Source: Bacteroidia bacterium (GTDB taxonomy: Bacteria; Bacteroidota; Bacteroidia; SpSt-205). Taken from it: a stretch of DNA of 64,000 bases. Below the pieces are notes generated by a model. It was not told where the DNA came from and did not search any database. It saw nothing but the letters and a program-made list of their open reading frames with translations. Positions 2,722-62,528 of the stretch are shown here, in pieces. A program made the translations under genes and the position numbers. Position 1 is the first letter of the stretch. Each line of letters begins with the position of its first letter. The stretch spans positions 47,648-111,647 of the forward strand of contig JBCNVK010000005.1 of NCBI GenBank assembly GCA_039630245.1. The letters run 5' to 3'.

Positions 2722-2729
2722 GCAAAGAT
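2722..2729 (-). promoter_or_regulatory. Bacteroidetes-type -7 promoter box (TATCTTTG on the minus strand), 9 nt upstream of the tRNA-Tyr 5' end
   Basis: Plus-strand caaagata at 2722-2729 is TATCTTTG on the minus strand, matching the consensus TAnnTTTG. It overlaps the T-run of the terminator of the upstream gene. Confidence 0.45.
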
Positions 2730-2765
2730 AAAAAAAATGGGGCGATGCGCGCAGCGCATCGCCCC
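2729..2765 (-). terminator. Rho-independent terminator for the T9SS cargo gene 2787-3725
   Basis: Perfect 12-bp stem GGGGCGATGCGC/GCGCATCGCCCC with a 3-nt loop, followed on the minus strand by an 8-T run. Confidence 0.7.
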
Positions 2766-2786
2766 GTAAGAAGAGGTCGGATCACT

Positions 2787-3725
2787 TTACTCCACCACCA
2801 CGAGCCGGTCAGCTACACGGCCATACTCGGTCTCTAAGAGGATAGTATAAATCCCCTTAGGTAGACGGAGCGAATAGCGGTGCTCGCCAGCGGCATACAA
2901 GCCCTCGTGGAGGTAAGCTTCACGGCCGTCCATGGTGAAGGCGCGCAGGCTCACGCGGGTAGGCGAGATGAGGATGAACCGAAGCTCCGTCTCACCCCAA
3001 GCCGGATTAGGGGATAAACGCATCTGTACAGAGTGGTTTCCTATATAGCCTGTATAGGTCGGAAGATTGCGGGTGATTTTCACTACGTACCGAAACACGG
3101 TATCTCCATAGGTGCGGTTACCACCCGCATCAGGAGTGTGAAGGGTAGTGGTGTCCTTATTATTCCCATCGCCTGCGAGGGTAGGTATGAAGAATCGTAC
3201 GCGCACGCGCAGGGTGTCAGAGCCTTCTTGATTGGCCGCCTTGATGCAGAGACGGGCGCAACCGAAAGGGGGTGAGCCACCCGCTGTACCCCCAGCACCC
3301 CATTCCGTAGGCGAGGGATTGCGATATACTACAAATCTTGCCGTGTTAGGATTGTTCGGCTCATAGGCCTTGAGGCGGTGCGGTTGGTCAAAGTGGATGG
3401 GGCCAGCCTCAGGGTTATTACTGTTGTAAGCAAAGGGGTTACCGCTGCGGTCCGTCACCCGGTTGGAGTCTAGGCGCATACTATCTACCCAGATGGCATA
3501 ATTAGGAAACACAGTGAAGAGCCCCCTTCTTACAGAGTCTGGAAAGGTGAAATGTACTACGAGCGTAGTGTCGGAACCAGGGCGAAGCCGCAGGGTGTCC
3601 GGATTGAAGCCGAACGGCAACCTAATCAAATTTCGATCAGGCGTGCACTGGGCGCACGTATTTTGGCTGTAAGCCTGAGCCCCTAAAAGGGCCACCGAAA
3701 ATAGAGTAACGCTAGCGTAACGCAT
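2787..3725 (-). CDS. Secreted protein with an N-terminal signal peptide and a T9SS C-terminal sorting domain
   Basis: Signal peptide MRYASVTLFSVALLGAQAYSQ. C-terminal LSPNPAWGETELRF...GIYTILLETEYGRVADRLVVVE is a T9SS CTD. The start is placed at the internal ATG (3725) because TATATTTG lies 7 nt upstream on the minus strand. Confidence 0.6.
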   Translation of the reverse strand: MRYASVTLFSVALLGAQAYSQNTCAQCTPDRNLIRLPFGFNPDTLRLRPGSDTTLVVHFTFPDSVRRGLFTVFPNYAIWVDSMRLDSNRVTDRSGNPFAYNSNNPEAGPIHFDQPHRLKAYEPNNPNTARFVVYRNPSPTEWGAGGTAGGSPPFGCARLCIKAANQEGSDTLRVRVRFFIPTLAGDGNNKDTTTLHTPDAGGNRTYGDTVFRYVVKITRNLPTYTGYIGNHSVQMRLSPNPAWGETELRFILISPTRVSLRAFTMDGREAYLHEGLYAAGEHRYSLRLPKGIYTILLETEYGRVADRLVVVE

Positions 3726-3732
3726 ACCGCTC

Positions 3733-3740
3733 CAAATATA
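3733..3740 (-). promoter_or_regulatory. -7 box TATATTTG on the minus strand, 7 nt upstream of the ATG of gene 2787-3725
   Basis: Matches TAnnTTTG; it sits in a divergent AT-rich intergenic region. Confidence 0.4.
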
Positions 3741-3766
3741 CGGCTTTTTCCAAAAATCCAAATTCC

Positions 3767-3774
3767 TACCTTTG
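3767..3774 (+). promoter_or_regulatory. -7 box TACCTTTG, 4 nt upstream of the GTG start of the OlsF-like gene
   Basis: Matches TAnnTTTG. It is one half of a divergent promoter pair with 3733-3740. Confidence 0.4.
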
Positions 3775-3778
3775 GCTG

Positions 3779-5611: not shown

Positions 5612-5618
5612 GAGCTCC

Positions 5619-5626
5619 TAATTTTG
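5619..5626 (+). promoter_or_regulatory. -7 box TAATTTTG, 4 nt upstream of the ATG of the enoyl-CoA hydratase gene (internal promoter in the cluster)
   Basis: Matches TAnnTTTG, in the 19-nt gap after the olsF-like stop. Confidence 0.4.
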
Positions 5627-5630
5627 CGGT

Positions 5631-9289: not shown

Positions 9290-9451
9290 GATTTTGCTGC
9301 TCTCTTAGTAACGGGCTAAAGATGACCTGATAGCGGCACGGTAGAATTCTGCCTAGCTAAAAATCCGCCAGCAGAGCTAGGGATACACCTTGTCTATAAG
9401 CCCTTATCCCTTTCTGGTCAGCAAGGGGCGTAGAAAGGTGCGCATTTGGCT

Positions 9452-9459
9452 TACCTTTG
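9452..9459 (+). promoter_or_regulatory. -7 box TACCTTTG, 4 nt upstream of the GTG (9464) of lepB
   Basis: Matches TAnnTTTG. Confidence 0.35.
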
Positions 9460-9463
9460 TGCG

Positions 9464-14517: not shown

Positions 14518-16109
14518 AGCTTTACAAAAATAGCTTTGTAGGCGGTCTTACTTGCTCGGGAGAGGAGTTCTAAGAGATAGGGGCCTGGGGAGAGGCTGCC
14601 GATGGGTAGACGCATTTCCGTAAGGCCACGGTAGAGTCCTGAATGCACTTGATTGCCCTTTATGTCGTAAATCGCAAAGTCATAAAAGGCGAGGGTGGTG
14701 TCAAGGAGGAAAAGCGTAAGGTAGTCGCTGGCGGGATTAGGATAGAGCTGCAGCTGAGGGGCTAAGTTAGGGTTGTGGAGGCGAGTGAGGTGGGCAAGCG
14801 CGCGCTCGGCGTCGGGTAGGCCATAGCCATACAGGGTGTCGGGGTTATGGTAGCGGTCGGCTGAGCGGATAATCGCTTCTCGGATTTCCCAATTGCGTGC
14901 GTGAGGCATCGCCTGCCACAAGCAGGCCGCTAAAGCGCTAACAAGGGGAGCAGAGAAAGAGGTCCCTGCACTATATTGTACAGTGCCATTGAGGCCTAGT
15001 ATTTGGGTACCCCATCCTAAGGCCACTACATCGGGCTTTATGCGTCTATCCGCAGAAGGCCCGCGCGAGGAGAAAGGGGTGATTTCCCCATTTACATTGA
15101 TAGCCCCTACCCCTAAAATGCTGTCGGCATCAGATGGCGCAGTAATGTAATGCCAAGGGGAATTCCCTTCGTTGCCAGCCGAGGCTACTACTAAAATGCC
15201 TTTTTGAGTGGCTATGCGAGCCGCTTGGGTAGAGATAGCCGTGCGCCCGTTCATGTCGCGGTAGGTATAGTTTTCCGCTGGGTCATCAAAAGTGCTGTAG
15301 CCGAGCGAACTCTGGATGATATGAACGCCGTGGGAGTCGGCCCACTCAGCCGCTTCCGCCCAGTTCCATTCTTCTAAGCGTGTCTCAGAGAGGGCATTTT
15401 CGGTGCGTGCTAGAAGCACGCTTACATGGGGCGCGCCGCCGAGGTAGCCTGTGCCTTGCGGATCGTAGGCCACAATGACCGAGGCTACATGGGTGCCATG
15501 GGCATTATCTTCAAAGATAGACTGATTGCGATCCACAAAATCTCGCCCGCCTAAATAGCGGTTTTCTCTGAAAATGTGCTCAAAAGCGCGCATTTGATCA
15601 AAGTAAGGAAAGCCTGCATCAAAAATAGCCATACGGATGCCTTGTCCCGTATAACCCCGCTGATGGAGAAAAGGCAGTTTGAGCTGGTCCAGCTGGAAAG
15701 CATTTATGACCGAAGCCGACTGAGTAGGGGAAGCTTTGCTCTGAAGGGCCGGTAAGGGGGAGGGTGAGATAGGCTTAGGAGCGGGACAGAAATACTCCAC
15801 ACAGGCTACGCCAGGTAAAGACCCCAGAAGCTGAGGCGAAGTAGTCTCTACAAGGGCGGCATTTAGCCAGCGAGAGATTCCGTAAAGGCGGCCTGCCCGA
15901 GCAAGGCCTTCTATCCAAGCTAGCGGTATGGGAAGGTCTCGTCCGTCAATAGGCACACCGTGCAGGCGACGGCGCTCTATAGCAGCAGGACTCAAATACT
16001 GCTCAGGAAAAGGCAAAAGGGAGTCAGGCTTAGGCTGAAAATGCACTAAGTATAGCGCCGATTGCGTCCATCCCCCCAAGGGTAACAGCCAACTCCACAG
16101 CCACCGCAT
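14514..16109 (-). CDS. S8 (subtilisin) serine peptidase with a T9SS C-terminal sorting domain
   Basis: DAGF/HGTHVASVI/GTSFSAPLVS form the catalytic triad. The C-terminal LQLYPNPASDYLTLF...AIFVKL is a T9SS CTD. The start is set at the ATG at 16109; a GTG lies at 16115. Confidence 0.75.
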   Translation of the reverse strand: MRWLWSWLLPLGGWTQSALYLVHFQPKPDSLLPFPEQYLSPAAIERRRLHGVPIDGRDLPIPLAWIEGLARAGRLYGISRWLNAALVETTSPQLLGSLPGVACVEYFCPAPKPISPSPLPALQSKASPTQSASVINAFQLDQLKLPFLHQRGYTGQGIRMAIFDAGFPYFDQMRAFEHIFRENRYLGGRDFVDRNQSIFEDNAHGTHVASVIVAYDPQGTGYLGGAPHVSVLLARTENALSETRLEEWNWAEAAEWADSHGVHIIQSSLGYSTFDDPAENYTYRDMNGRTAISTQAARIATQKGILVVASAGNEGNSPWHYITAPSDADSILGVGAINVNGEITPFSSRGPSADRRIKPDVVALGWGTQILGLNGTVQYSAGTSFSAPLVSALAACLWQAMPHARNWEIREAIIRSADRYHNPDTLYGYGLPDAERALAHLTRLHNPNLAPQLQLYPNPASDYLTLFLLDTTLAFYDFAIYDIKGNQVHSGLYRGLTEMRLPIGSLSPGPYLLELLSRASKTAYKAIFVKL

Positions 16110-16114: not shown

Positions 16115-16122
16115 CAAATATA
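16115..16122 (-). promoter_or_regulatory. -7 box TATATTTG on the minus strand, upstream of the S8 peptidase start
   Basis: Matches TAnnTTTG. It is back-to-back with the kbl box. Confidence 0.4.
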
Positions 16123-16125
16123 ACT

Positions 16126-16133
16126 TACTTTTG
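16126..16133 (+). promoter_or_regulatory. -7 box TACTTTTG, 4 nt upstream of the kbl ATG
   Basis: Matches TAnnTTTG. Confidence 0.4.
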
Positions 16134-22051: not shown

Positions 22052-22078
22052 AAGCCAAAGGTACGACAAAGAAAGGTA

Positions 22079-23455
22079 TCAGGGCGGGCAAAATAGACGG
22101 GTTTGCCACTCGTCTATAGTTAGCAGGTAGAGCCCGAGAGGGTTAGGAGGAAGCGGGAGAGTGAGATGCGGTCCGTGGATGTAGCCTTCGGCGAGCAGGC
22201 GGCCCGCCGTATCCAGTAGGCACCACCGCCGCCCTATATAAGGGGTTGGAAGCTCTAAATACAGAGTTCCTGCAGAGCAGAAAGACCGCGGTGTAGAATA
22301 GGAGGAGAACGGTCTCAGGAAAGTACTAAGGCTGAGAGTGAAAGTAGTTTCAGCGGTGCATCCGTGCGCGTCCCGCACAATTACCTGGTAGGTGCCCGGC
22401 CCAAGGCCGGTAGGATTAGGGCCGGTAAAGCCATGGCTCCAGATGTATTGATAGGGTGGCTGCCCTCCTTGAACACTGAGGCTAATGCTGCCGCTATTAG
22501 GGTTATCAGGGGTAGGGGGCGAAATCTGCGCAGAGAGGGAAAGGCGAGGATAGGCGCAGGTAGTGGAGTAGGTTATAAAGGTAGAGGCCAAGCTCGCCAG
22601 CGTATCTATGAAGCGTGCGGGACAGCTATCCCTAAGATAAGCATTCAGAAAGGGCCTTAGGATCCGAAGAGTAAGGGCCTGCTGCTGGGCGCGCGTGAGC
22701 GTGATGGTAGAGCCTGCGCTATTTTCACCGAAGTCACAGGCTGCATCAGGGTTAGCAAAGTAGCAGTGGCCCCCACCTGTAAGGCTGACGTAAGCCTTAC
22801 AAGTAGCTGCAAGGTTGTTATAAATAGGTAGCTGATGCTGGCGAGGGGGAGTCACGCTATCTCCCGAACCAGCTATAATGAGGGTAGGCAGGGTTACCTG
22901 GGCGGCTGCTTGAATGGCGGAAGGATTAGTGTTAGCGGCTGCTAGGCCTACTACGCAGTGCGCGCCAGAGAAGTTAGCGGCGGCTAAGATGGCGCAGCCG
23001 CCCCCCATAGAGTGTCCCATCAGTGCAAGGCGCGGATAAATACGCCCGTAGAAAGGGCTAAAAGGATTTTGCCCTTCGGCTAAAAGGCGCTCGCCCACTA
23101 GCCGCAGGTCCAGCGCAAAGTCCCTATGGCTAGGGGAAAAACCGCCCTCCGTGCGTGGGAGGGCTACTATGTACCCCGCAGGTACTAACTCTTCCCATAA
23201 GTTCTGGTAGGCTGACCAAGGCATAAGAAATCCGTGACCAATAAGTATTACGGGAAAAGCGCCAGTCTGAATGGGTGTATTGTCCCCCGCTTGCACGGCG
23301 GGGTAATAGATCTCGGTTTGGATCTGTCGGCCCGGGCCGCCGCCCGATCCAAATCCTCCGCTGCGCGTGGGATCGTTGAAGACAAAAGTGCGATGACCTA
23401 TTTGGGCAAAAGCCGCAAGGCCTAAGAAAAGAGGTAGTCCAAAAAGTTGTTGCAT
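22079..23455 (-). CDS. Secreted alpha/beta hydrolase (lipase/esterase-like) with an SprB repeat and a probable T9SS C-terminal domain
   Basis: Signal peptide. GHSMGG nucleophile elbow. An SprB-type repeat: GGQPPYQYIW...GPGTYQVIVRDAHGC. The C-terminal ~70 aa is a weak CTD. Confidence 0.55.
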   Translation of the reverse strand: MQQLFGLPLFLGLAAFAQIGHRTFVFNDPTRSGGFGSGGGPGRQIQTEIYYPAVQAGDNTPIQTGAFPVILIGHGFLMPWSAYQNLWEELVPAGYIVALPRTEGGFSPSHRDFALDLRLVGERLLAEGQNPFSPFYGRIYPRLALMGHSMGGGCAILAAANFSGAHCVVGLAAANTNPSAIQAAAQVTLPTLIIAGSGDSVTPPRQHQLPIYNNLAATCKAYVSLTGGGHCYFANPDAACDFGENSAGSTITLTRAQQQALTLRILRPFLNAYLRDSCPARFIDTLASLASTFITYSTTCAYPRLSLSAQISPPTPDNPNSGSISLSVQGGQPPYQYIWSHGFTGPNPTGLGPGTYQVIVRDAHGCTAETTFTLSLSTFLRPFSSYSTPRSFCSAGTLYLELPTPYIGRRWCLLDTAGRLLAEGYIHGPHLTLPLPPNPLGLYLLTIDEWQTRLFCPP

Positions 23456-23501: not shown

Positions 23502-23509
23502 TATCTTTG
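23502..23509 (+). promoter_or_regulatory. -7 box TATCTTTG, 6 nt upstream of the ATG (23516) of the M1 peptidase
   Basis: Matches TAnnTTTG. Confidence 0.4.
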
Positions 23510-32958: not shown

Positions 32959-33642
32959 CTAACGAACAGGTTCTTGCAGGACATCTAAAAAAGCAGTGCT
33001 AGCCACCTCCATCTTGAGAATAAAGCTTTGAATGCGGTTGACGAGGAAGTTATAGGCGAATTGCATTGGAATCGCTACGATGAGCCCTGCAGCAGTGGTA
33101 ATCATAGCTTCATAAATCCCGTCCGCTAAGGCAGCTGGATTTACATTTCCCTGAAGCTGGGCAATCTTCATGAAGGCCTGGATGAGGCCCGTTACGGTGC
33201 CTAAAAAGCCCACCATAGGCGAGAGGGCAGCGATCGTGGCTAAGTAAGGGATATTTTTTTCCAATTGAAGGATTTCTAGGTTGCCTTGGTTTTGGACGGC
33301 GGCGGCGATGTCGGGGAGGGGCGAACCTAACCGGCTAATCCCTTTCCCCACCATACGAGCGAAGGGCGTAGGGTTAGCTGCGCAAAGCGCCTCTGCGCGT
33401 TGGATATCGCCTCTACGGATAGCGTTTTTGACCTGCTCCATAAAGGCCGCAGGGTCCTTGTCGTACTTCGCAATTAGGAGAAAACGCTCAAGGAAAATGT
33501 AAACGCCGACGGCGAAAAGAATGATTAGCACGGCCATGCTCCAGCCGCCCATTAGAATAAAATCCAGCAGGGTAAGCTCTACGGGCTGGGGGGTAGTGGG
33601 AGAAGGGGTTTCGGGAAGTGTCTGCAACCAGACCATACCCAA
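32959..33642 (-). CDS. exbB: MotA/TolQ/ExbB proton-channel protein
   Basis: Three TM helices. The conserved C-terminal core resembles TolQ/ExbB. Confidence 0.8.
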   Translation of the reverse strand: MGMVWLQTLPETPSPTTPQPVELTLLDFILMGGWSMAVLIILFAVGVYIFLERFLLIAKYDKDPAAFMEQVKNAIRRGDIQRAEALCAANPTPFARMVGKGISRLGSPLPDIAAAVQNQGNLEILQLEKNIPYLATIAALSPMVGFLGTVTGLIQAFMKIAQLQGNVNPAALADGIYEAMITTAAGLIVAIPMQFAYNFLVNRIQSFILKMEVASTAFLDVLQEPVR

Positions 33643-33652
33643 AGGTACGCGC

Positions 33653-34408
33653 TCATTCCTGCCCTGAGGCCACGTAGGCGCGCAGGGCTTGGTAAAGGGC
33701 CTGGGCTATCCGCTGCTGCCCATTCTCAGAGGCCAAATACTGCTCCTCCTGAGGGTGGGTAATGAAACCAATTTCACAGAGTACCGCTGGCATGCTCGTG
33801 CGCCAGAGTACGAGAAAGCCCGCCTGCTTGACGCCGCGACTGGGCCGCTGCGTAACCTCTACCAGCGCATCCTCAATTCGGCGGGCAAGCCGCAAGCTCT
33901 GCCTTAGGTAAGCATGCTGAACAAGGGAAAAGATAATATAGGCCTCCTCAGAGTTGGGATCAAAGCCCTCATAAGTGCGCTGGTATCCCTCTTCTAAAAG
34001 TATGGCGGAATTCTCCCGCATTACTACAGAGAGGTTTTCGGCTGTTTTGTGCTCGCCTAAGGCATAGGTTTCGGAGCCGTGAGCCTCCTTTTTAGGGTTG
34101 GCGTTGCAGTGGATGCTAAGGAAAAGGTCAGCATGCAGCTTATTAGCAGTATCGGCGCGACGGGAAAGCTCTACAAAAACGTCCGAGTCGCGCGTGAGGA
34201 CTACGCGGAAGTGGGAGTCGCGACGCAGAAGTTCGGCTAGCTTAAGGGCCACCCCGAGGGTGATGTGCTTCTCTTTGGTGTGGCGGCCGCTGGCCCCGGG
34301 GTCTTTACCGCCATGACCGGGGTCTATAACGACCAGTACAGGCCGAAGCGGCCGCAGCGAAGTAGCGCATAGGGCAAGTAGCAGCCAAACCCATCTACCT
34401 TTGCCCAT
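33653..34408 (-). CDS. N-acetylmuramoyl-L-alanine amidase (Amidase_3)
   Basis: VVIDPGHGGKDPGA, plus SIHCNA and Glu residues. It has a signal peptide. The start is set at the internal ATG. Confidence 0.8.
   Translation of the reverse strand: MGKGRWVWLLLALCATSLRPLRPVLVVIDPGHGGKDPGASGRHTKEKHITLGVALKLAELLRRDSHFRVVLTRDSDVFVELSRRADTANKLHADLFLSIHCNANPKKEAHGSETYALGEHKTAENLSVVMRENSAILLEEGYQRTYEGFDPNSEEAYIIFSLVQHAYLRQSLRLARRIEDALVEVTQRPSRGVKQAGFLVLWRTSMPAVLCEIGFITHPQEEQYLASENGQQRIAQALYQALRAYVASGQE
34396..34403 (+). promoter_or_regulatory. -7 box TACCTTTG, 11 nt upstream of the lptD ATG
   Basis: Matches TAnnTTTG. It lies inside the divergent overlap with the amidase 5' end. Confidence 0.3.
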
Positions 34409-34414
34409 ACGCTC

Positions 34415-36886
34415 ATGCAAATATGCAAAACTAGTGTCTTTATGCTGGCGGTGGTGTGGGCACAGTTAGGCGTGCCGCCCCCGCGCGATACCCTTCCCTC
34501 AGGCCTGAAAAAAAAACTGGTAGAGGCTGCGCCCCTGCGCGATACGCTGGAATATGCCGCCGCCGACTCTATAGTTTTTGATCTGCATAGGCGAGAGGCG
34601 CGTCTCTATCGGCAGGCACGATTGGGTAAGCGTGGCTTTCGCTTAGAGAGCGGTCTAATTCTCCTCTCACATACCAGCGGCTGGCTCTATGCCCGTCCCT
34701 ACGCAGCGGGAGATAGCCTACGTGAATATCCCGTGCTCTACAATTTAGGCGACCGCTATGAGGCGGATAGCCTGCGGTATCATCTTCAACAGCGGCGCGG
34801 GCAGCTTTTCGGGCTGCGTCAGCAGCTTACGGAGGAGGTCCTAGCCGGGCGTACCGTCCAGCTCAATCCTGATACGACTTTCTACGCGGCTAATGCCTAC
34901 TATACTACCTGTACGGCACGCCCACCGCACTTCTATATCGCTGCAGGACGCATTAAGGTGTATAAGGAGCGCATTATTAGCGGGCCCCTCTATGCGGTAG
35001 TAGCGGATGTACCCCTGCCTATCTTTGCGCCTTTTGGCTACTTTCCTTTACTCAGCCGGCGCTCTTCTGGGCTGATTCTTCCTATCATTGGCGAAGCGGC
35101 CGATAGAGGATTTTTTCTGCGGGGTTTGGGGTATTACTGGGCTATTAGTCCGTATGCTGATGCGCGCTTAGAATTAGACCTCTTTACGCGTGGGGGCTTT
35201 CGTTCGGAGCTTCTCTGGACCTACCGCCGCCGCTACTGGTACGATGGGCTCTTTTCAGTTCAGTACGCCTACCTAAGCTTCAATGAACCCGGCGATCCGG
35301 ATTACCAGGTCCAACGGCTGACCTTTGTGCGCTGGCAGCACCGCCAGACCCTTTCCCCTACGGCTTCCCTTAGCGCCAATGTCCAAGCGGGCTCCTCGGC
35401 CTTCCTCGCCCGCCAGAGCTATAGCGCTACGGAATTCCTTTCCACTAACCTCCAATCCAGCATCGCCCTGCAAAAAAACTTTCCCAATAGTCCTTGGCAG
35501 CTTACGGTAGCGGCGGGGCATACCCAGAATCTTATCCAGCGGCTCTGGAACATTCAGGTGCCTGTATTGGCCCTATACCAAAATCGCACTTTTCCCTTTC
35601 AGCGGCGCCAAAGCGTAGGACGGCGGCGCTGGTATGAGCTCATCGGCGTAACCTATCGGCTGGATGCTCAGGGGGCTGTGCAATTGCCCGAAAGCCTCCT
35701 TAGCCTGGCGGTCTTACAGGATACCTTCCGCTGGGGGGCGCGCCATAGCATACAAATAGCCGCCGGCTATACCCTCTTCCGCTACTTCCAGTTAGCTCCA
35801 GCCCTTACCTATAACGAGTACCTCTATAGCGAGTGGCGCCGCTATACCCTAGACCCAGCGAGGGATAGCGTAGTAGCCCAACGCGTAGTACGGCCGCGGA
35901 CGGCGCGCGATTTTTCGGGTAGCGTTACCCTTTCTACCCGGCTCTACGGTATCCTGCGGATAGGAAGCCCGCGCCAAATAGCTGTGCGCCATACCCTTAT
36001 TCCTTCAGTAGGTTTTCAGTGGCGCCCTGACTTTGGGGCGGCTTGGTGGGGGTACTACCAGTACCTTTCTATGCAGGGGCAGCCTCAGCGGTTTGACCCC
36101 TTTGTAGGTAGCTTTTACGGCAGTCCTCCTTCAGGGGCCCAGGCTGCCCTCTCCCTTTCCCTAAATAACCTTCTGGAGGCCCGCTACAAAGACCCCCAGG
36201 ACCCCAAAGGCCGAAAGTACAAGTACCTTACACTGCTGGATAACTTTGGCGCCTCCGCCAGCTATAACCTTGCCGCCGATAGCTTTGCGCTTTCGCCTAT
36301 TGCCCTCTTTGCTCGCACTAATCTTTTGGGCAATCTGCTCAATCTCAACTATACGGCTACTCTGGACCCCTATTTTTACGATACCTTAGGTCGGCGGCGG
36401 CCGATCTACCACTGGCGCAGGCATCGTGGCATTGGTACAATCGCCCAAATGAACTGGGCCATAGCGATGGCGCTACGCCCTTCCACTACCCTCTCCTCTA
36501 CTGACATAAAGGAAGAAACTTTCGTATTCTTCAACCTTCCTTGGCGGCTGGATATCAGCTATAACCTCGTAGGCGTGCGCCAATATCATCCTGACTCCGT
36601 GCGATACAAATGGATACAAACGCTGGGCTTTTCAGGCGAGTTTAATCTCACGCGCTTTTGGCGGATCCAGGTAAGTTCAGGCTTTGATTTTACCCAAAAG
36701 CGCTTAGCCTTTACGGCTATCAATATTTACCGAGACTTGCACTGCTGGGAAATGAGCCTAAATTGGATTCCTTTTGGACCACGTCAGAGCTATTTTTTCA
36801 CCCTGTCGGCGCGCGCACCTAAGCTGCAGGATCTGCGTCTTACCAAACGGCGGGATTGGCAGGACCGATTTGTACGCGGATTGTGA
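34415..36886 (+). CDS. lptD: LPS-assembly outer-membrane protein LptD
   Basis: YYTTCTARPPHFYIAAGRIKV...PLPIFAPFGYFPL is an LptD signature block. At 823 aa it is consistent with a beta-barrel OMP. Confidence 0.55.
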   Translation: MQICKTSVFMLAVVWAQLGVPPPRDTLPSGLKKKLVEAAPLRDTLEYAAADSIVFDLHRREARLYRQARLGKRGFRLESGLILLSHTSGWLYARPYAAGDSLREYPVLYNLGDRYEADSLRYHLQQRRGQLFGLRQQLTEEVLAGRTVQLNPDTTFYAANAYYTTCTARPPHFYIAAGRIKVYKERIISGPLYAVVADVPLPIFAPFGYFPLLSRRSSGLILPIIGEAADRGFFLRGLGYYWAISPYADARLELDLFTRGGFRSELLWTYRRRYWYDGLFSVQYAYLSFNEPGDPDYQVQRLTFVRWQHRQTLSPTASLSANVQAGSSAFLARQSYSATEFLSTNLQSSIALQKNFPNSPWQLTVAAGHTQNLIQRLWNIQVPVLALYQNRTFPFQRRQSVGRRRWYELIGVTYRLDAQGAVQLPESLLSLAVLQDTFRWGARHSIQIAAGYTLFRYFQLAPALTYNEYLYSEWRRYTLDPARDSVVAQRVVRPRTARDFSGSVTLSTRLYGILRIGSPRQIAVRHTLIPSVGFQWRPDFGAAWWGYYQYLSMQGQPQRFDPFVGSFYGSPPSGAQAALSLSLNNLLEARYKDPQDPKGRKYKYLTLLDNFGASASYNLAADSFALSPIALFARTNLLGNLLNLNYTATLDPYFYDTLGRRRPIYHWRRHRGIGTIAQMNWAIAMALRPSTTLSSTDIKEETFVFFNLPWRLDISYNLVGVRQYHPDSVRYKWIQTLGFSGEFNLTRFWRIQVSSGFDFTQKRLAFTAINIYRDLHCWEMSLNWIPFGPRQSYFFTLSARAPKLQDLRLTKRRDWQDRFVRGL

Positions 36887-39823: not shown

Positions 39824-39839
39824 CCCTTCATACCTTTCT

Positions 39840-40415
39840 TTGTATGGACTAAGCTCGGGACTCATGGGATTTCTGCGGGCATGGGATGAGCAGCTCCTTT
39901 TATGGCTAAATCAGGCGGGTACGCCAGAGTGGGATGCGTTTATGTGGTATATTACGCAGACATGGGTTTGGGCGCCGCTTTTTTTGGGCTTAGGGATTTG
40001 GCTACTAAGACGCTACAAAAGGCGCACATGGGTGCCTATAGTTGGTGTTTTGGCTAGCGTGGGTCTGACGGATGGGCTTACGGGGCGGGTGCTAAAGCCC
40101 TGGGTGGCTCGCCTGCGGCCCTCCCATCAAGCGTCGCTCCGGCCTAGCTTGCGTATAGTTCGCGGCTATCGTGGGGGCCTTTATGGGTTTCCTTCCAGTC
40201 ATGCTGCTAACAGCGCGGCTTTGCTTAGCGCCCTCTGGGTGTGGTTGCGTCGCCCCCTACTCCTTCCCATAGGACTTGGCTGGGTAGTACTCCACAGTGG
40301 TAGCCGAGTCTACTTAGGTGTGCACTACCCTAGCGATATTTTGGCTGGGTGGCTAATAGGTGCTAGCGTAGGGTATCTCCTAAACCGCTTACTCCTAAAG
40401 TTTATATGGGTCTAA
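39840..40415 (+). CDS. PAP2-family lipid phosphatase
   Basis: The three PAP2 motifs are present: KPWVARLRP, PSSHA and GVHYPSDILAG. Confidence 0.8.
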   Translation: MYGLSSGLMGFLRAWDEQLLLWLNQAGTPEWDAFMWYITQTWVWAPLFLGLGIWLLRRYKRRTWVPIVGVLASVGLTDGLTGRVLKPWVARLRPSHQASLRPSLRIVRGYRGGLYGFPSSHAANSAALLSALWVWLRRPLLLPIGLGWVVLHSGSRVYLGVHYPSDILAGWLIGASVGYLLNRLLLKFIWV

Positions 40416-42158: not shown

Positions 42159-42711
42159 TCGCTTCTATAAGCGGCTCTTGGGCTGGGTCGTAAGTGAGCC
42201 TGAGGTTAGAGCCGTAAAGACGCGCGGTAAGCTGCCAGAAGGTAGCCTGTAAGGGGCCGGTATAATCTCGTATCAAGCTGTAGGCGTCAATACCCGTCTC
42301 GCGGTGGATGAGCTTGATAAGCAGTATGCCTTGAGTTACGGTCATTTCGCGGAAAATGGGTTCATAGCGCTCGAAGAGCTCGCGCCGCAGGCGCCGCGCA
42401 TATTTTTTGAAGTCGCGGCGGCTCAGTCGGGCTCTTTCGTTATCTACTTCCCGCACGATGCGCGCAGCTTCTTTAGCGAAGGGATAGACTAAATACACAT
42501 TTTGCCGCAGCCGCTGGAAGGCGCGCCACTGTTTGCGAGTCTCAGCGATGCGTTCGGGCGGTGGAGCCTGCGCGATAATTTCCACCGGCTCCATAAGATA
42601 GATTGGAATACTGTCAGGGCCTAAAAGGAGACGGCGCTGGGCTGAAGCCCAAAGTGGCAAGAAATAGAGAAAAGTTTTTCCTACCTTTGCCCAAATATGG
42701 CCCTGGCGCAT
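42088..42711 (-). CDS. DUF4294-like secreted protein (Bacteroidetes-specific)
   Basis: Signal peptide MRQGHIWAKVGKTFLYFLPLWASAQ. The start is chosen at this internal ATG. It overlaps the hydrolase 3' end convergently. Confidence 0.4.
   Translation of the reverse strand: MRQGHIWAKVGKTFLYFLPLWASAQRRLLLGPDSIPIYLMEPVEIIAQAPPPERIAETRKQWRAFQRLRQNVYLVYPFAKEAARIVREVDNERARLSRRDFKKYARRLRRELFERYEPIFREMTVTQGILLIKLIHRETGIDAYSLIRDYTGPLQATFWQLTARLYGSNLRLTYDPAQEPLIEAIIEEIETGRSADWVLQAYEPPIE
42682..42689 (+). promoter_or_regulatory. -7 box TACCTTTG, 7 nt upstream of the miaB ATG
   Basis: Matches TAnnTTTG. Confidence 0.4.
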
Positions 42712-51100: not shown

Positions 51101-52400
51101 ATCGCTGGGCTTCCCAATTCCTAAAGCTTACCTTCAGTAGGTAGGACCAATCATCGGTTTTCTGAAGCTTGCCCGTAGCCTGAAGCTCTGGGGCGTATGC
51201 GGTAAAGGTATATTGCTGCTGGTGTAGCCACCCTGCATGTTCAGCTTGAAGCCTAAGGGGCAGGTGAGTATGTATGCCTTTAGGTAAGCCGATCAGGGGC
51301 AAAGTGCGGTAAATACCTTCCCAGGACACGAAGGCATCGTGCAGCCGCACCTGCCAGCGCATCTTTTCCGGGCGAGCGTAATGGATAATCTCTCCTTCAG
51401 CCACTAGGTATTCGCACGCATCTAATTCAATGCGGAGCCGTGTAGCCTTTATACGGTAAAGGTCGCCAGTAGCCTGCAGGTCTATGGTCCATTGACTCTG
51501 AAGGGGAAGGGCCGTCCCAGCGAAAGCGGCCACATCAGCCCAGCCCAAGGTACCCCACAAATGGGCTTGAAAGAATTTAGTTTCAGTATTCCGAAAAAGC
51601 TTGTCTAGGCCTTCATGGGTAAAAGTGCCTCTACCGTGAAGTTCGCTGTGCGGTAGGCGAACATGCAAGTAGGGGATGAGAGTCTTATTTGGGAAGGCCT
51701 TCAGTACTAGACTAATGTGGTGGATGGGTAGGCTTGCGTAGGCCTCCTTGCCAGTGAGTTTGTGAATGGCAGCCCATACCTTCCCTCCAGTGCTTAGCTC
51801 AAGGCTGCTCTCTAAAAAAAGGCTGTCCAGCCATAGGTCCGCGTAATTGAGGTAGCCAACCTCATGGGTGAAGGGATAGGCCGTGGAATCCACCCAACGG
51901 AAGGTGCCATTTTTTAGGGAGAGGCGTCGTAAGCTGAGCCACCAGCGCTTTGGCCCTTCGGTGGAAGCGGAGGTATCCTTAGGAAAAAGTCGGTCTACAT
52001 TTGTGAGGCCACTGTGGCGCTCCTTGTAGATGAATACGCTGGGGGCTTCCAGATCCACGTAGGATACGGGAAAGTACTGGCGCCCATTCCAGAAGCCCTC
52101 CCAAAAGGCATAAGGAACCCACTGCAGCCGCAAGGAGCGGGCCCGAATAAAGGGCTGGCAAGCCCGATCATAAAGAATAAAATGCTCTGCTTCTACCTCG
52201 GCTAGGCCGCGCAGGCGTAAAGCCCCCAGCTCTACCTCAGTTTGGAGGGCATTACTAAGCACCGTAACAAGAAGCCTACGCAGGGTCGCTTGGCCGGAAG
52301 GAGTAGCCAAAATAAGCTGAAGCCCAATCACCCCTATTCCCCCGAGAACTAATAGGGTAAGAAAAAGATAACCGAACCAGCGGCTTGTGCGTTTAGCTCG
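48084..52400 (-). CDS. tamB: Translocation and assembly module protein TamB (DUF490 family)
   Basis: N-terminal signal-anchor WFGYLFLTLLVLGGIGVIG, a very long beta-rich body and a C-terminal DUF490-like region. The 5' end is uncertain: the frame runs into tRNA-Leu and no canonical start follows the tRNA. Confidence 0.7.
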   Translation of the reverse strand, partial: RAKRTSRWFGYLFLTLLVLGGIGVIGLQLILATPSGQATLRRLLVTVLSNALQTEVELGALRLRGLAEVEAEHFILYDRACQPFIRARSLRLQWVPYAFWEGFWNGRQYFPVSYVDLEAPSVFIYKERHSGLTNVDRLFPKDTSASTEGPKRWWLSLRRLSLKNGTFRWVDSTAYPFTHEVGYLNYADLWLDSLFLESSLELSTGGKVWAAIHKLTGKEAYASLPIHHISLVLKAFPNKTLIPYLHVRLPHSELHGRGTFTHEGLDKLFRNTETKFFQAHLWGTLGWADVAAFAGTALPLQSQWTIDLQATGDLYRIKATRLRIELDACEYLVAEGEIIHYARPEKMRWQVRLHDAFVSWEGIYRTLPLIGLPKGIHTHLPLRLQAEHAGWLHQQQYTFTAYAPELQATGKLQKTDDWSYLLKVSFRNWEAQRWGLTLPLSELWGEAHLEAKGFDLAQLRGLLQAELHGRLPQGGRVQIAGHLNLEAGNAQGTWQAETPYGTFFYSGRLPLHEGSFYQGSGWFDGLSAELWGASGTCTGTFIVSGAGLPWTKGWANLILPNLSWLRENHTYFLNQVEVYLQNGCYYRLRGPGLSLAMQSEGDWLEGLQNWGRRWEIWQAEGLFPLALGSPTWRLSGELVLDNPVWLWLLGLPAQVELRGALGCLEIDEAHAECAISWDTLKWQDLYLAHGRLTLRKYADSLYIHAEAQEGSTYLKWHSLVLQSQSTSQSGLLNLYSIVGAMQDTFFLALSWQRAGASPLVQIQLDTLRSHFYLGHQLWTFRQGSMIEFDISQGLPIASLLEAQSRESSLGFRQGPEGLTLKVHQLPISPVLTSLGKEVPLEGRLSLGWEGQEEASFWVDMEALHYAGFAYPPIRLTGKLAEKALQFQGVVQELNNTYLQFRGRYNWQDTAAPMYVELRKFYLPARWLSPFLREHILNLRGSFQSRYLAISGKPTKPHVRGEILCDNLSFYLPFTRMVYAVEGFLLLRNDSIIFRSLELRESQFHRAHVDGSIILQEGFEPHLNLEIKITDPRFLLAVISPSSDAYLYGRAELEEGSLRIKGLWHTPQLEGYVRFGEGTELHMPLHTYQRSSSAHHVRFVGPTQPESLRQVIAPTGLDLHLHITSVPRTQFRIIFDERTGDEIAAQGSADLFLRIDREGKINLAGSYEIQRGEYRINLQGVASKRLVLEPGGTISWDGDLYSGRLHLTALYRASTNLQQIDTAFFQTVPVELRVLVRGTLLAPLMNFTIDIPSLGGSATPLVNLFLQRLRNDEQERNRQVFALLMLGTFVPMEQGFGSRQVRSGVSSTLAEFLSAQLAGWVGQTLGNEVGVSFSVGQRNELLAQLRLNLGQRLTIERDGILVGPGSNNPTLGNLSARYRLLPRRFSEPTDWQLEVEGFSRQTFLWGAVGATSQGAGIRLRKGFFLPERRRRRSLVSAGE

Positions 52401-52484
52401 TGCCCAGAGCCGGACTCGAACCGGCACGGAGTTACCTCCACCAGTTTTTGAGACTGGCGCGTCTACCTGTTCCGCCATCTGGGC
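52401..52484 (-). tRNA. tRNA-Leu (anticodon CAA), type II
   Basis: The reverse complement is GCCCAGATGGCGGAACAGGTAGACGCGCCAGTCTCAAAAACTGGTGGAGGTAACTCCGTGCCGGTTCGAGTCCGGCTCTGGGCA. The anticodon loop is CTCAAAA, and there is a long variable arm. Confidence 0.85.
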
Positions 52485-52490: not shown

Positions 52491-52498
52491 CAAAGGTA
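52491..52498 (-). promoter_or_regulatory. -7 box TACCTTTG on the minus strand, 6 nt upstream of the tRNA-Leu 5' end
   Basis: Matches TAnnTTTG. It is back-to-back with the box at 52504-52511. Confidence 0.45.
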
Positions 52499-52503: not shown

Positions 52504-52511
52504 TATGTTTG
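52504..52511 (+). promoter_or_regulatory. -7 box TATGTTTG, 9 nt upstream of the ATG at 52521
   Basis: Matches TAnnTTTG. Confidence 0.4.
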
Positions 52512-53206: not shown

Positions 53207-54385
53207 TTAGTTTAGGCGCTCAAAGATACCAGCTATGCCTTGGCCACCTCCCACGCAAGCCGTTACTAAGCCATATTTCTGATTGCGTCGCCGCAGTTCA
53301 TTTAGGATTTGTACGGTGAGCTTAGCGCCCGTACAGCCGAGCGGATGGCCTAACGCAATAGCCCCCCCATTGACATTTACCTTATCCAGTGGCAGCTCGG
53401 CTAGCTTGATTACGGCTAAGGATTGGGCGGCGAAGGCTTCATTTAGCTCGATAAGGTCTATATCGGCTAAGGAGAGTCCGGCGCGCCGTAGGGCCTTTGG
53501 TATGGCCTCTACAGGACCTATCCCCATAAGGCGCGGCTCTACGCCAGCCACGGCATAGCCGCGCAATACAGCTAAGGGCTTGAGGTTATGCCGTTTAAGG
53601 AAAGCCTCACTCACAACTAAAACAAACGCTGCGCCATCCGAAGTTTGAGAAGCATTGCCAGCCGTTACCTGACCATTAGCGGCAAAAACTGGCTTGAGCT
53701 TCGCTAAGGCTTCCAAGCTGGTATCTGCGCGCGGCCCTTCATCCGTATCGTGAATAAAGCGGCGCACCTGCCTTTTGCCATTCTCTACAATTACTTCTTC
53801 TACTTCAAGCGGCACGATCTCCTCCCGAAACTTGCCAGCGGCTATAGCGGCGAGCGCATTCTGGTGAGAGCGTAAAGCGAAGGCATCCGCCTCCGCCCGC
53901 GTAATCTGGTACGTACGGGCTACTTCCTCAGCAGTCATGCCCATATTGTAGTACCAGTCGGGCGCATGCAGGGCATAGTTGTAGTTGGGTGCGATCTTAA
54001 AGCCTCCCATAGGCACTAGGGACATCGTCTCAGTACCTCCTGCTATAATCGCCTCGGCATCACCCGTGCGGATTTTAGAAACAGCCATGGCTATGGCTTC
54101 CAGACCTGAAGCGCAGTAGCGATTGATAGTAACAGCGGGCACCTCTTTACCTAAGGCCTTCAGGGCGATGTAGCGGCCCATATTGAGCCCTTGCTCGGCT
54201 TCGGGAATAGCATTGCCGCAGATGAGGTCATCTATCTCTTGGGTGAAGTTTATTTGGGGGAAGTCGGCGCGCAGCTTCTCAATCACCGCTACGGCCATAT
54301 CGTCGGGTCGTACGGTTCGTAACCTACCGCGCGGCGCCTTTCCCACAGCGGTGCGGTAACCGGCTACTAAGTAGGCTTCCTGCAT
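53207..54385 (-). CDS. Acetyl-CoA C-acetyltransferase (thiolase II)
   Basis: [11 protein letters not shown] (Cys), and C-terminal [16 protein letters not shown]. Confidence 0.85.
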
Positions 54386-54399
54386 GAAGCAAAAATAGT

Positions 54400-55083: not shown

Positions 55084-55161
55084 TGTGGCCTTGCAAAATA
55101 ATAAATTTGGGTCTAAAGTTCCCTTAGGTATGGCGCTAAGGTTTTAGCGTATTTTGAGGGC

Positions 55162-55749: not shown

Positions 55750-55757
55750 TATCTTTG
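55750..55757 (+). promoter_or_regulatory. -7 box TATCTTTG, 7 nt upstream of the LOG-family gene ATG
   Basis: Matches TAnnTTTG. Confidence 0.4.
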
Positions 55758-55764
55758 CTTAGGC

Positions 55765-58084: not shown

Positions 58085-58506
58085 AAAGGCCTTTTTGGTC
58101 GCAGCCCCATGAGGTGCGCCTGCGCGTGCGTTATGCCGAAACCGACCAGATGGGGGTAGTGTATTACGCCCATTATGCCGTCTATTGTGAAGTAGCTCGT
58201 ACCGAATGGCTGCGCCGCTTTGGGCTTACCTATGCGGAAATGGAACGCACGATGGGTATTCTCCTGCCGGTTCGCCACTTTCGGATTACTTACCACCGAC
58301 CAGCGCGCTATGATGATGAGCTGCGGTTAGAAACGCGCCTACTGGCCCCACCGCAGACCCGCCTCCACTTCCACCACTTCATCTATCGTGAGGCAGAACT
58401 ACTGGCCGAAGCTGAGGTGGTTCTGGTATTCATTGACCGGCATACCTGGCGGCCCTGCCGACCTCCCCAAGCCTTCTATGAAGCGCTGGCTCTGGCTAAT
58501 TCTTAG
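58063..58506 (+). CDS. Acyl-CoA thioesterase, YbgC/4HBT hotdog family
   Basis: RVRYAETDQMGVVYYAHYAVYCEVARTEWLR carries the hotdog-fold catalytic Asp motif. Confidence 0.75.
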   Translation: MASSEEVERPFWSQPHEVRLRVRYAETDQMGVVYYAHYAVYCEVARTEWLRRFGLTYAEMERTMGILLPVRHFRITYHRPARYDDELRLETRLLAPPQTRLHFHHFIYREAELLAEAEVVLVFIDRHTWRPCRPPQAFYEALALANS

Positions 58507-59395: not shown

Positions 59396-59414
59396 AAGCG
59401 TTATGTTTGTAGCC

Positions 59415-61142: not shown

Positions 61143-61258
61143 GGCTGCCTAATAGGCCCTGTTAGGTGGAGTGGGGAGCGGGTTTTGAAACCTATAGCGG
61201 CTGCCTGCAGAAGAATAGGATTAGCAGAATGGCCGCCCCAAGTAGCAGAAGGTGAAGA

Positions 61259-61855
61259 TCAAGGAGGGGTAAGGGGCTGGAAAGTTATCTTTTCCCAGCC
61301 CATTTCGTGGCATAGTCGGCTCAGGAGGCGTTCGGCCTGGGCTTGGGCGGCCGCCTGCGGAAAATGCTGGCTAATACGCACTTTTAGCGTTTCCTGAGCC
61401 GCCGTAAGTACCTCGCGCAGTCGCTCAGCTTCGCCGCTACGCCACCACTCTAAAAAAGAAAAGTCGGCTTCATATACCTGAATGCTTTGGGGGTCAATTC
61501 GTACTTGACATACATAGGGCGGGGGCAGGGCTAATTTCAGCGTGCGCTGACGCCAGTCGGCCTCCTGAATCCGAATCTGGGCAAAATCCATACAAATACG
61601 GGCTTCTCCCGTGAGGATGATAAGAAGGCGTGAGCGGGCTAGCGGCAAATTATAGCTCCATTCTCGTCGCACTACGTCGCGCAATTGATAGGCCAGGAGT
61701 TCTAGTTGGCCTAAGGCTGTAAGACGCTCCACTAAGAGGGTTTGTTCCTCTTTAGCTTTTTTCGCCTCAGCTGAGCTTTGCTGCCAGTAGGCCAGTCCTA
61801 AGCCCCCTACAAGGCCTAAGCCCAGAAAGAGCGTATAGCGAAGCAGCAAGCGCAA
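61259..61855 (-). CDS. Hypothetical membrane-anchored protein (DUF4230-like)
   Basis: N-terminal TM; no catalytic motif. Confidence 0.35.
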   Translation of the reverse strand: MRLLLRYTLFLGLGLVGGLGLAYWQQSSAEAKKAKEEQTLLVERLTALGQLELLAYQLRDVVRREWSYNLPLARSRLLIILTGEARICMDFAQIRIQEADWRQRTLKLALPPPYVCQVRIDPQSIQVYEADFSFLEWWRSGEAERLREVLTAAQETLKVRISQHFPQAAAQAQAERLLSRLCHEMGWEKITFQPLTPP

Positions 61856-61859
61856 AGCC

Positions 61860-62420
61860 CTAGCTCTGAGTGCGCAGCGCGCGCGGCACCTCTACCCGTG
61901 CAATTCCTGTATCTGGCGAAGCCACAATCTCTAGCCCCGGTATATTCACTTTAGCTACGGTGAGAGTTTTGCCCAGCTTGAGACTTGAAATGTCTATCTC
62001 CAGCGCAGGTGGGAGGTCTTTGACTTTGCCGCGTACGCGCAGCCGCCGCACTAAGGGCACAAGCTTGCCTCCCATCTGAACTCCTTCCGCCAGACCTACC
62101 AGCTTAACGGGTAGAGGAAGAGTTACTACATCCTCCAAATCGCACGCCATAAAATCCAAATGCAGTACATAATCATGGACAGGATGGAGCTGGTATTCGC
62201 GTAAGATGGCCGTGTAACTTTTCCCCTCTAAACGCAGCTCGAAGAGATAGACATTGGGGGTGAATACCACTTTGCGCGCTTCATTTTCAGGGAGGAGAAA
62301 GGGGATGTTTAGGCCTTTTCCGTAGAGGCTGCAGGGTACTTGGTGCTGGCGGCGGTAGCGGCGTGCCTCAGCCGTGCCTACTTTCGCCCGTAATACCCCT
62401 TCTAAAACATACCGCTGCAT
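61860..62420 (-). CDS. rplY: 50S ribosomal protein L25 / general stress protein Ctc
   Basis: L25 N-terminal domain (RAKVGTAEARRYRRQHQVPCSLYGKG) and the Ctc C-terminal extension. Confidence 0.8.
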   Translation of the reverse strand: MQRYVLEGVLRAKVGTAEARRYRRQHQVPCSLYGKGLNIPFLLPENEARKVVFTPNVYLFELRLEGKSYTAILREYQLHPVHDYVLHLDFMACDLEDVVTLPLPVKLVGLAEGVQMGGKLVPLVRRLRVRGKVKDLPPALEIDISSLKLGKTLTVAKVNIPGLEIVASPDTGIARVEVPRALRTQS

Positions 62421-62422
62421 AG

Positions 62423-62496
62423 CGCACCCGGGAGGACTCGAACCCCCAACCGCCAGATCCGAAGTCTGGTGCTCTATCCAATTGAGCTACGGGTGC
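62423..62496 (-). tRNA. tRNA-Arg (anticodon TCG)
   Basis: The reverse complement is GCACCCGTAGCTCAATTGGATAGAGCACCAGACTTCGGATCTGGCGGTTGGGGGTTCGAGTCCTCCCGGGTGCG. The anticodon loop is CTTCGGA. Confidence 0.8.
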
Positions 62497-62520
62497 ATAA
62501 GAAGCCCCTCAAAGGCGAAA

Positions 62521-62528
62521 CAAAGATA
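62521..62528 (-). promoter_or_regulatory. -7 box TATCTTTG on the minus strand, 24 nt upstream of the tRNA-Arg 5' end
   Basis: Matches TAnnTTTG. Confidence 0.35.

Follow-up and report, generated by a model that had tools for sequence, protein, structure and literature searches.

The DNA analysed here, referred to as the window throughout, is a stretch of 64,000 nucleotides (64 kb, 55% GC) on contig JBCNVK010000005.1 of a Bacteroidia bacterium (GCA_039630245.1, positions 47,648 to 111,647). Directly upstream of many of its genes lies the octamer TAnnTTTG, which by its sequence matches in detail the -7 box of promoters read by the primary sigma factor (sigma-A) of Bacteroidota and is called the -7 box in the following. 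The boxes assigned to genes are given below. A spacer is the number of nucleotides between the G that closes the box and the start codon, and the 5' ends of the tRNAs are those on which ARAGORN and Rfam agree; a scan of the window with Rfam returned nothing besides four tRNAs.

2723..2730, minus strand: -7 box TATCTTTG, 10 nt before the 5' end of tRNA-Tyr (2712); heads the tRNA-Tyr/tRNA-Gly/UbiA string and is kept in the relatives L162 and L163
3733..3740, minus strand: -7 box TATATTTG, spacer 7 to ATG 3725 of a secreted protein, the divergent partner of olsF
3767..3774, plus strand: -7 box TACCTTTG, spacer 4 to GTG 3779 of an OlsF-like acyltransferase
5619..5626, plus strand: -7 box TAATTTTG, spacer 4 to ATG 5631 of an enoyl-CoA hydratase (crotonase), in a 19-nt gap after olsF
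9452..9459, plus strand: -7 box TACCTTTG, spacer 4 to GTG 9464 of signal peptidase I (lepB); TTG 9446 is a possible alternative start
14525..14532, minus strand: -7 box TATTTTTG, spacer 7 to ATG 14517 of an M48 lipoprotein, within the 3'-terminal part of the S8 gene
16115..16122, minus strand: -7 box TATATTTG, spacer 5 to ATG 16109 of an S8 peptidase with a type IX secretion (T9SS) tail
16126..16133, plus strand: -7 box TACTTTTG, spacer 4 to ATG 16138 of kbl
22056..22063, minus strand: -7 box TACCTTTG, spacer 4 to ATG 22051 of an Fe/Mn superoxide dismutase (sodA)
23502..23509, plus strand: -7 box TATCTTTG, spacer 6 to ATG 23516 of an M1 peptidase with a signal peptide
33640..33647, minus strand: -7 box TACCTTTG, spacer 3 to ATG 33636 of ExbB/TolQ, in a 16-nt gap
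34396..34403, plus strand: -7 box TACCTTTG, spacer 11 to ATG 34415 of LptD, with a predicted leader of ~6-7 nt
34426..34433, minus strand: -7 box TAGTTTTG, 17 nt to ATG 34408 (amidase) or 5 nt to TTG 34420; faces the lptD box
42682..42689, plus strand: -7 box TACCTTTG, spacer 7 to ATG 42697 of MiaB
52491..52498, minus strand: -7 box TACCTTTG, 6 nt before the 5' end of tRNA-Leu (52484), with a predicted tRNA leader of 1-2 nt
52504..52511, plus strand: -7 box TATGTTTG, spacer 9 to ATG 52521 of a CcmE-like protein
54390..54397, minus strand: -7 box TATTTTTG, spacer 4 to ATG 54385 of a thiolase, in a 14-nt gap
55750..55757, plus strand: -7 box TATCTTTG, spacer 7 to ATG 55765 of a LOG family protein, in a 21-nt gap
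59402..59409, plus strand: -7 box TATGTTTG, spacer 5 to ATG 59415 of a NuoG-like protein with the N-terminus MPTIYIDGK
62521..62528, minus strand: -7 box TATCTTTG, 24 nt before the 5' end of tRNA-Arg (62496)
63029..63036, minus strand: -7 box TACCTTTG, spacer 7 to ATG 63021 of a small secreted protein, divergent from the gene at 63097
63085..63092, plus strand: -7 box TACTTTTG, spacer 4 to ATG 63097 of a second M1 peptidase
55102..55109, plus strand: comparator box TAAATTTG, 52 nt before ATG 55162 (AcpH), an ordinary leadered layout

The motif TAnnTTTG occurs 50 times in the window, compared with 28.1 +/- 5.3 times in dinucleotide shuffles, none of 100 of which reached 50. Seventeen of the 50 matches are followed after 3-12 nt by an ATG that opens an open reading frame (ORF) of at least 100 codons, where 0.86 would be expected (binomial P ~5e-18). 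A sense-strand box ends at positions -12 to -3 of 18 of the 53 protein-gene starts, while the reverse complement, used as an antisense control, is found there at none of the 53. All three tRNA operons of the window are likewise preceded by a box. The other ~27 matches are intragenic, a number equal to the chance expectation, and the entire excess of the motif is located just upstream of genes. The intragenic chance matches often have G at the n positions.

Fourteen of the matches had been pointed out in an earlier note on this DNA, and all fourteen are present, with the small correction that the first occupies 2723-2730 and does not begin at 2722. The count was real as far as it went but missed eight cases, namely those at the starts 14517, 22051, 33636, 34408/34420, 54385, 59415, 63021 and 63097. 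The 4-nt spacers given for the boxes at 3767, 5619, 9452 and 16126 were measured as 4 nt each. For a second group 6-11 nt had been stated, which agrees with the values at 23502 (6), 34396 (11), 42682 (7), 52504 (9), 55750 (7) and 3733 (7) but not with the box at 16115, whose spacer is 5 nt. The stated 6-24 nt before tRNA 5' ends correspond to 10 (Tyr), 6 (Leu) and 24 nt (Arg), and in the divergent pairs, described as lying ~4-27 nt apart, the boxes were found 26, 3 and 5 nt apart. The note had named a random frequency of the motif as a refutation, and the shuffles place the motif well off the chance level.

Several features argue for a promoter element. G is rare at the two n positions (-10 and -9), as in the consensus TAHHTTTG: it was found 1 and 2 times, respectively, among 22 promoters of the window and 4 and 3 times among 62 promoters of the clade formed by the window and its relatives. 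Positions -20 to -18 of the window promoters are 73-86% A+T, and C at -19 is present in only 3 of the 62 clade promoters. The element adjoining the starts is TAnnTTTG and not a Pribnow-type TATAAT -10 box. In the window and its relatives, the exact box precedes seven of seven tRNA operons at a variable distance of 6-24 nt, and a purely translational signal is ruled out because these operons are untranslated. Among protein genes, the box is carried by 11 of the 16 that lead operons (~69%) versus 1 of the 22 that overlap their upstream neighbour (p = 3.6e-5). Six more boxes are located in same-strand gaps of 14-27 nt, before the genes of crotonase, sodA, exbB, thiolase, LOG and the NuoG-like protein. 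At genes with spacers of 3-11 nt there is no room for a Shine-Dalgarno (SD) sequence. No SD signal was detected at internal genes either, where an SD-like 4-mer is present in 4 of 30 cases against a background of 18%. The window itself has no sigma factor gene, whereas the related locus L166 (6358-7230) encodes a short RpoD-like sigma factor of 290 aa with regions 1.2-4. The best matches to this protein in the PDB are SigA chains, and the PDB holds no structure of a Bacteroidota sigma-A. Same-strand junctions fall into two classes: in about 22 the neighbouring genes touch or share bases (-119 to 0 nt, with ATGA or TGATG at several of these junctions), and in the others a gap of 14-27 nt holds a box. 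The internal genes are often pyrimidine-rich at -3 to -1.

The start codons were checked apart from the motif. In the predicted proteins, Pfam profiles begin close to the N-terminus: Sod_Fe_N aligns from profile position 2 at residue 3, Thiolase_N from position 2 at residue 5, ECH_1 from position 3 at residue 10, Peptidase_S26 from position 2 at residue 10, Fer2 from position 1 at residue 4 (NuoG-like protein) and ACP_PD from position 1 at residue 1 (AcpH). For kbl, miaB, the M48 gene and the second M1 peptidase, the open frame contains a single candidate start. Signal peptides are present at several predicted N-termini (MRK.., MKKSC.., MRW.., MRL..), of which MKKSC.. is the lipoprotein signal of the M48 protein. 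In ~27 OlsF-like homologues of the clade the N-terminus always reads M-x-RYRRPL, which pins the start of olsF to GTG 3779. An independent gene caller gave identical starts for SodA, S8, kbl, M48 and M1; among these are 16109 and 23516, which the earlier note had chosen with the help of the motif.

The final TTG of the box is itself a legal start codon, which comes into frame at spacers of 3, 6 or 9 nt. Starts placed inside a gene's own promoter in this way appear in naive ORF lists and in at least one gene call of a database (52509, 33642, 23507, and 7812 in L169), and in L163 one called gene spans an entire divergent promoter region.

The position and spacing of the box are conserved among relatives. 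We define the clade by homologues of OlsF (58-93% identity) and GuaA (62-75% identity), beyond which identities fall sharply to 46% and 56%. At protein identities of 64-93%, box and spacing are kept before kbl, thiolase, olsF, the divergent partner of olsF and sodA, while the letters of the spacer, the flanks and even the choice between ATG and GTG vary. For kbl, the window reads TACTTTTGctctATG, L003 (SKW103) reads TATCTTTGtagcATG and L002 (SKW77) reads TACTTTCGctctATG; around this locus SKW77 and SKW103 have kbl alone in common with the window, so that the kbl promoter alone is comparable. For the thiolase, the window reads TATTTTTGcttcATG and L082 reads TACTTTTGtggtATG, with an unrelated gene upstream in L082, which has only the thiolase and the next gene in common with the window. 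The olsF box TACCTTTG with its spacer of 4 nt is found with spacers of 4-5 nt in L162, L163, L165, L166 and L167 (64-93% identity), the start switching between GTG and ATG; it is missing in L164, a clade member at 58%, and in the outgroup L168 at 46%. The box TATATTTG of the divergent partner (spacer 7) is kept with 6-7 nt in L162, L163, L165 and L166, and the sodA box with spacer 4 is also present in L169 and L170. Nine relative loci (~158 kb) together contain 18 boxes with spacer 4 and 11 with spacer 5, and the two further loci L169 and L170 have the same near-box pattern.

This layout is special to the lineage of the window and is not phylum-wide. In 14 loci of other Bacteroidota, 13 near boxes were found versus 52 far ones, and loci from outside the Bacteroidota showed no box signal. 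We rejected GC content as the cause, since L012 and L030, both labelled Bacteroidota (51-56% GC), and the unlabelled metagenome locus L095 (53%) have far and not near boxes. Mapped transcriptomes agree with this restriction: leaders of <10 nt amount to 3.7% in B. thetaiotaomicron (PMC7366714), leaderless mRNAs to 5.5% in F. psychrophilum (PMC9723704), and 87% of the leaders of F. johnsoniae are >10 nt (PMC6847099); for S. copri ~35 leaderless transcripts are on record. With short leaders making up only 3.7-13% in mapped Bacteroidota, the pattern does not hold as a habit of the phylum. Beyond the clade, GuaA matches at ~53-55% identity include Thermoflexus, Kallotenue, Ammonifex, Thermodesulfitimonas and Hydrogenibacillus, and others of similar identity belong to Bacteroidota, Herpetosiphonaceae and Bacillota. 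The five named genera are thermophilic, which hints faintly at a possible origin in a hot spring.

The spacing bears on where transcription would begin. Among the 62 clade promoters a spacer of 4 nt is the most frequent (23 cases), followed by 5 nt (13), 7 nt (9), 6 nt (7), 3 nt (6) and 9 nt (4); 51 of these promoters lead to an ATG start and 11 to a GTG start. The mode of 4-5 nt is found in the window and in the 11 relative loci alike. In F. johnsoniae the box extends from T-12 to G-5, with 4 or 5 nt between box and transcription start (PMC6847099), and it is likewise located at -12 to -5 in F. psychrophilum (PMC9723704). The modal spacer equals this published distance, which would make +1 coincide with the initial base of the start codon, a purine. 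Genes with spacers of 4 or 5 nt are thus predicted to be exactly leaderless, and spacers of 6-11 nt would leave leaders of 1-7 nt. The broad spacing before tRNAs and the constrained spacing before mRNAs fit a constraint that comes from translation. Not every case is equally clear: the ExbB/TolQ box is less certain because its spacer of 3 nt is below the published distance, and the NuoG-like box is the weakest case, with G at -9 and ATG 59403 inside the box.

We consider it likely that in this lineage promoters of the Bacteroidota type, joined directly to the start codon, yield leaderless or near-leaderless mRNAs for most of the genes that lead operons and for some internal genes. In the proposed mechanism, a -7 box for the primary sigma factor is held at a set distance from the start codon, mostly 4-5 nt and in fewer cases 6-9 nt. 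The polymerase would begin on the fifth or sixth base after the G, that is, on the initial A or G of the start codon (ATG or GTG) or 1-5 nt ahead of this base. The resulting mRNAs would be leaderless or nearly so, and the ribosome would recognise the 5'-terminal start codon in the absence of a ribosome-binding site. Genes that do not lead an operon would be translated by coupling through the overlap with the preceding gene, or would be served by a promoter of their own in a gap of 14-27 nt. The earlier note had already read the pattern as leaderless or near-leaderless transcription, and this reading is supported and is the simplest one: the peak at 4-5 nt equals the box-to-start distance in Flavobacterium, the start itself being inferred. 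Its remark that no room is left for an SD sequence holds at the genes with spacers of 3-11 nt; the transcription start that it assumed, 6-8 nt past the -7 element, is slightly too far downstream, the published position being the fifth to sixth base after the G.

Several points weigh against this interpretation. GTG-initiated leaderless mRNAs are poorly translated in E. coli, yet they are used in mycobacteria, and 11 of the 62 clade promoters lead to GTG. The -33 TTG that had been proposed as a check is absent: neither TTG/TTTG enrichment nor any other signal near -33 was found in the 22 window or the 62 clade promoters. Six of the 62 cases have a spacer of 3 nt, which does not fit a start on the fifth to sixth base after the G. 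The transcription start is inferred with a distance borrowed from Flavobacterium, and the relatives were found via homologues of window genes and do not represent a random sample of genomes. Finally, seven boxes lie 0-27 nt behind a gene on the same strand, and such boxes within gene strings could be weak or silent.

The last point leads to the alternative that survives best, although we regard it as unlikely. The promoters would be real, but most protein would be made from longer leadered or polycistronic transcripts, with the leaderless class minor or conditional. It is possible that this applies chiefly to the boxes within strings, those of crotonase, M48, sodA, exbB, thiolase, LOG and the NuoG-like gene. 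The S8 stop overlaps ATG 14517 of the M48 gene (ATGA), a usual sign of coupled translation, and leadered mRNAs predominate in the mapped Bacteroidota. In the divergent pairs, however, only 28-75 nt separate the two starts, which leaves no space for another promoter outside the coding region of the neighbour, and a fixed spacing of 4-5 nt across relatives of 64-93% identity would be pointless unless the transcript that begins at the box is translated. A second alternative is highly improbable, namely that TAnnTTTG is an element of the mRNA, a non-SD ribosome-binding or start-context signal in the 5' leader of transcripts whose true promoters lie further upstream. Its short, fixed distance to the start codon does resemble that of a ribosome-binding site, and GeneMarkS-2 assigns a non-SD upstream motif to 90% of Bacteroidetes/Chlorobi genomes (PMC6028130). 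That published motif is A-rich, though, and not TAnnTTTG (PMC6028130); moreover, an identical box stands before all seven untranslated tRNA operons, it is nearly missing (1/22) before the overlapping internal genes where a ribosome-binding site is most needed, and it agrees with the sigma-A box in every detail, the A/T patch near -18 included. An artefact, arising from chance matches in A/T-richer intergenic DNA or from starts placed to fit the motif, has next to no probability: the earlier reader did use the motif to pick the starts 3725, 9464, 16109, 23516 and 52521, and the match at 53221-53228 (spacer 24) is a coding coincidence, but chance is excluded by the shuffles, the antisense control and the binomial test, and the starts are fixed by Pfam edges, sole candidates, signal peptides, conserved N-termini and the independent gene caller.

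Some genes of the window depart from the fused layout. The AcpH gene, with its box 52 nt upstream, demonstrates that a leaderless layout is not universal among the window genes. Before the Schlafen/AlbA_2 gene (55083) only TATTATTTTG was found, a variant of the box with a three-letter gap. No box precedes the PETase-like gene (23455) or the DUF4294 gene (42594), both of which head operons. The match at 53221-53228, 24 nt before ATG 53196, was rejected as a chance occurrence, as it lies in the coding end of the thiolase gene and is not kept in L082.

Two sequence elements adjoin boxes of the list. The 14-mer ATACCTTTCTTTGT occurs twice in the window, at 22067-22080 (minus strand) and 39827-39840 (plus strand); the former copy directly precedes the sodA box and forms a box-like element in tandem with it, the latter is located 21 nt before ATG 39864, and in two registers either copy differs from the box by a single mismatch. 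A perfect 12-bp hairpin, GGGGCGATGCGC-TGC-GCGCATCGCCCC, followed by T8 (2731-2775, minus strand) terminates the gene upstream of tRNA-Tyr and abuts the -7 box of tRNA-Tyr without a gap. The T-run of this terminator serves also as the A/T-rich upstream patch of the tRNA-Tyr promoter, a layout that is kept in L162.

Divergent promoters are compact. The boxes of kbl and S8 stand back to back, 3 nt apart, within an intergenic region of 28 nt, and those of tRNA-Leu and the ccmE-like gene are arranged in the same way 5 nt apart. The divergent boxes at olsF are separated by 26 nt, and 26-32 nt are kept in relatives. Where boxes are closely back to back, the upstream half of each promoter lies inside the first codons of the other gene, and two polymerases can probably not occupy both promoters simultaneously. 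The lptD and amidase boxes (34396-34433) face each other instead. Their predicted starts, ~34408 (plus strand) and ~34420 (minus strand), would give transcripts whose 5' ends overlap by ~12 nt.

A second arrangement was found at the 3' ends of tRNAs. All three tRNA strings of the window lead straight into a coding frame, which begins 0-3 nt past the tRNA 3' end, and a fourth such case is present in L164:

62418-62423: tRNA-Arg, then T-ATG; frame of ribosomal protein bL25/Ctc
2551-2555, minus strand: tRNA-Gly, then ATT; frame of a UbiA family protein
52395-52401, minus strand: tRNA-Leu, then GA-GCT; frame of a protein with a TamB-like signal anchor
20110-20114 in L164: tRNA-Val, then T-GTG; frame of Dxr

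Abutting frames were thus observed at four of six independent ends of tRNA strings, a small sample, and a long ORF this close behind a tRNA was found at none of 25 tRNAs in loci outside the clade. Between the end of tRNA-Gly and the Pfam domain, which begins at residue 28, the UbiA-family ORF (2473-2553, minus strand) contains neither ATG nor GTG nor TTG in frame; judged from the sequence, the ATT at the tRNA border is the only plausible near-cognate start. The same spot reads ATC in L162, a relative at 93%, and normal ATG or GTG starts are present in L163 and L166. In the TamB-like ORF (52331-52400, minus strand), no canonical start precedes the N-terminal membrane helix, none being found before mid-helix, and the in-frame GTG 52427 and ATG 52478 fall inside tRNA-Leu. 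A homology search with the TamB-like N-terminus gave no matches. Processing of the tRNA 3' ends could create further leaderless mRNAs at these abutting frames. In mitochondria, tRNA excision releases leaderless mRNAs, a mode known as tRNA punctuation. The present arrangement resembles it in that a tRNA 3' end is followed within 0-3 nt by a coding frame in four cases, in one of which the frame opens with ATT (ATC in a relative); it differs in that every tRNA string here is served by a promoter of its own and followed by a single ORF, and the processing is predicted.

If these lines are joined, the window would belong to a deep, uncultured lineage of Bacteroidota, comprising dozens of species-level clusters, in which leaderless translation is the default. 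The sigma-A -7 box would be locked at 4-5 nt from the start at most operon heads, additional leaderless promoters would be placed in gaps of 14-27 nt, and tRNA 3' processing would add further leaderless mRNAs as a bacterial form of tRNA punctuation, with the UbiA and TamB-like genes lacking a canonical start between the tRNA and the conserved N-terminus. We put this wider reading forward tentatively, as a possibility that we hold with less conviction than the promoter fusion itself.

Bacteroidota are without Shine-Dalgarno sequences. Leaderless mRNAs as an explanation of this lack were tested with a negative result in F. johnsoniae, B. thetaiotaomicron and F. psychrophilum (PMC6847099, PMC7366714, PMC9723704). 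A lineage of the same phylum in which the answer appears to be yes offers a natural contrast for the question of how ribosomes choose start codons in the absence of SD sequences, and also for the evolutionary change of initiation modes. The box furthermore supplies an independent rule for the placement of start codons in metagenome-assembled genomes, in which naive callers use the TTG inside the box or cross the promoter, and it provides compact, ready-made cassettes of promoter and start codon, among them divergent back-to-back pairs that span just 28 nt.

Compared with known systems, the promoters of the window resemble those of the Bacteroidota primary sigma factor (sigma-ABfr), for which -7 TAnnTTTG and -33 TTTG elements are described in B. 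fragilis, F. johnsoniae (PMC6847099), F. psychrophilum (PMC9723704) and B. thetaiotaomicron (PMC7366714). They have in common the -7 consensus with avoidance of G at the n positions, the A/T patch near -18 and the use at both protein and tRNA genes; in F. johnsoniae an A/T-rich block is likewise present near -18 and the -33 element is barely visible (PMC6847099). Unlike these promoters, those of the window lineage have no detectable -33 TTTG. A further difference is the distance to the start codon, to which the box has a median distance of 24-32 nt plus the discriminator in the mapped species, whereas ~69% of the operon heads of the window have it at 3-12 nt. In this respect the lineage resembles the leaderless-rich Actinobacteria and Deinococcus-Thermus (group C of GeneMarkS-2; PMC6028130, PMC3160421), which also have a fixed short distance between box and start at the first genes of operons, no SD at those genes, ATG as well as GTG starts and roughly similar operon fractions. 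Group C bacteria, however, use a TATAAT-type Pribnow box at 6-8 nt, compared with TAnnTTTG at 4-5 nt here, and the internal genes of the window, unlike theirs, are also devoid of an SD signal. Zheng et al. (2011), who considered Pribnow-like signals only, detected leaderless genes in a single genome among the 37 from Bacteroidetes/Chlorobi and pointed out that this might be an undercount (PMC3160421); in GeneMarkS-2, 10% of Bacteroidetes/Chlorobi genomes fall outside its non-SD group (group B) (PMC6028130). In the literature we found no report of a leaderless-rich lineage of Bacteroidota, which may nevertheless have been detected implicitly among these ~10%. Leaderless mRNAs and the TAnnTTTG box are each already known; what appears to be new is that the two are fused and that this layout predominates in a lineage of Bacteroidota.

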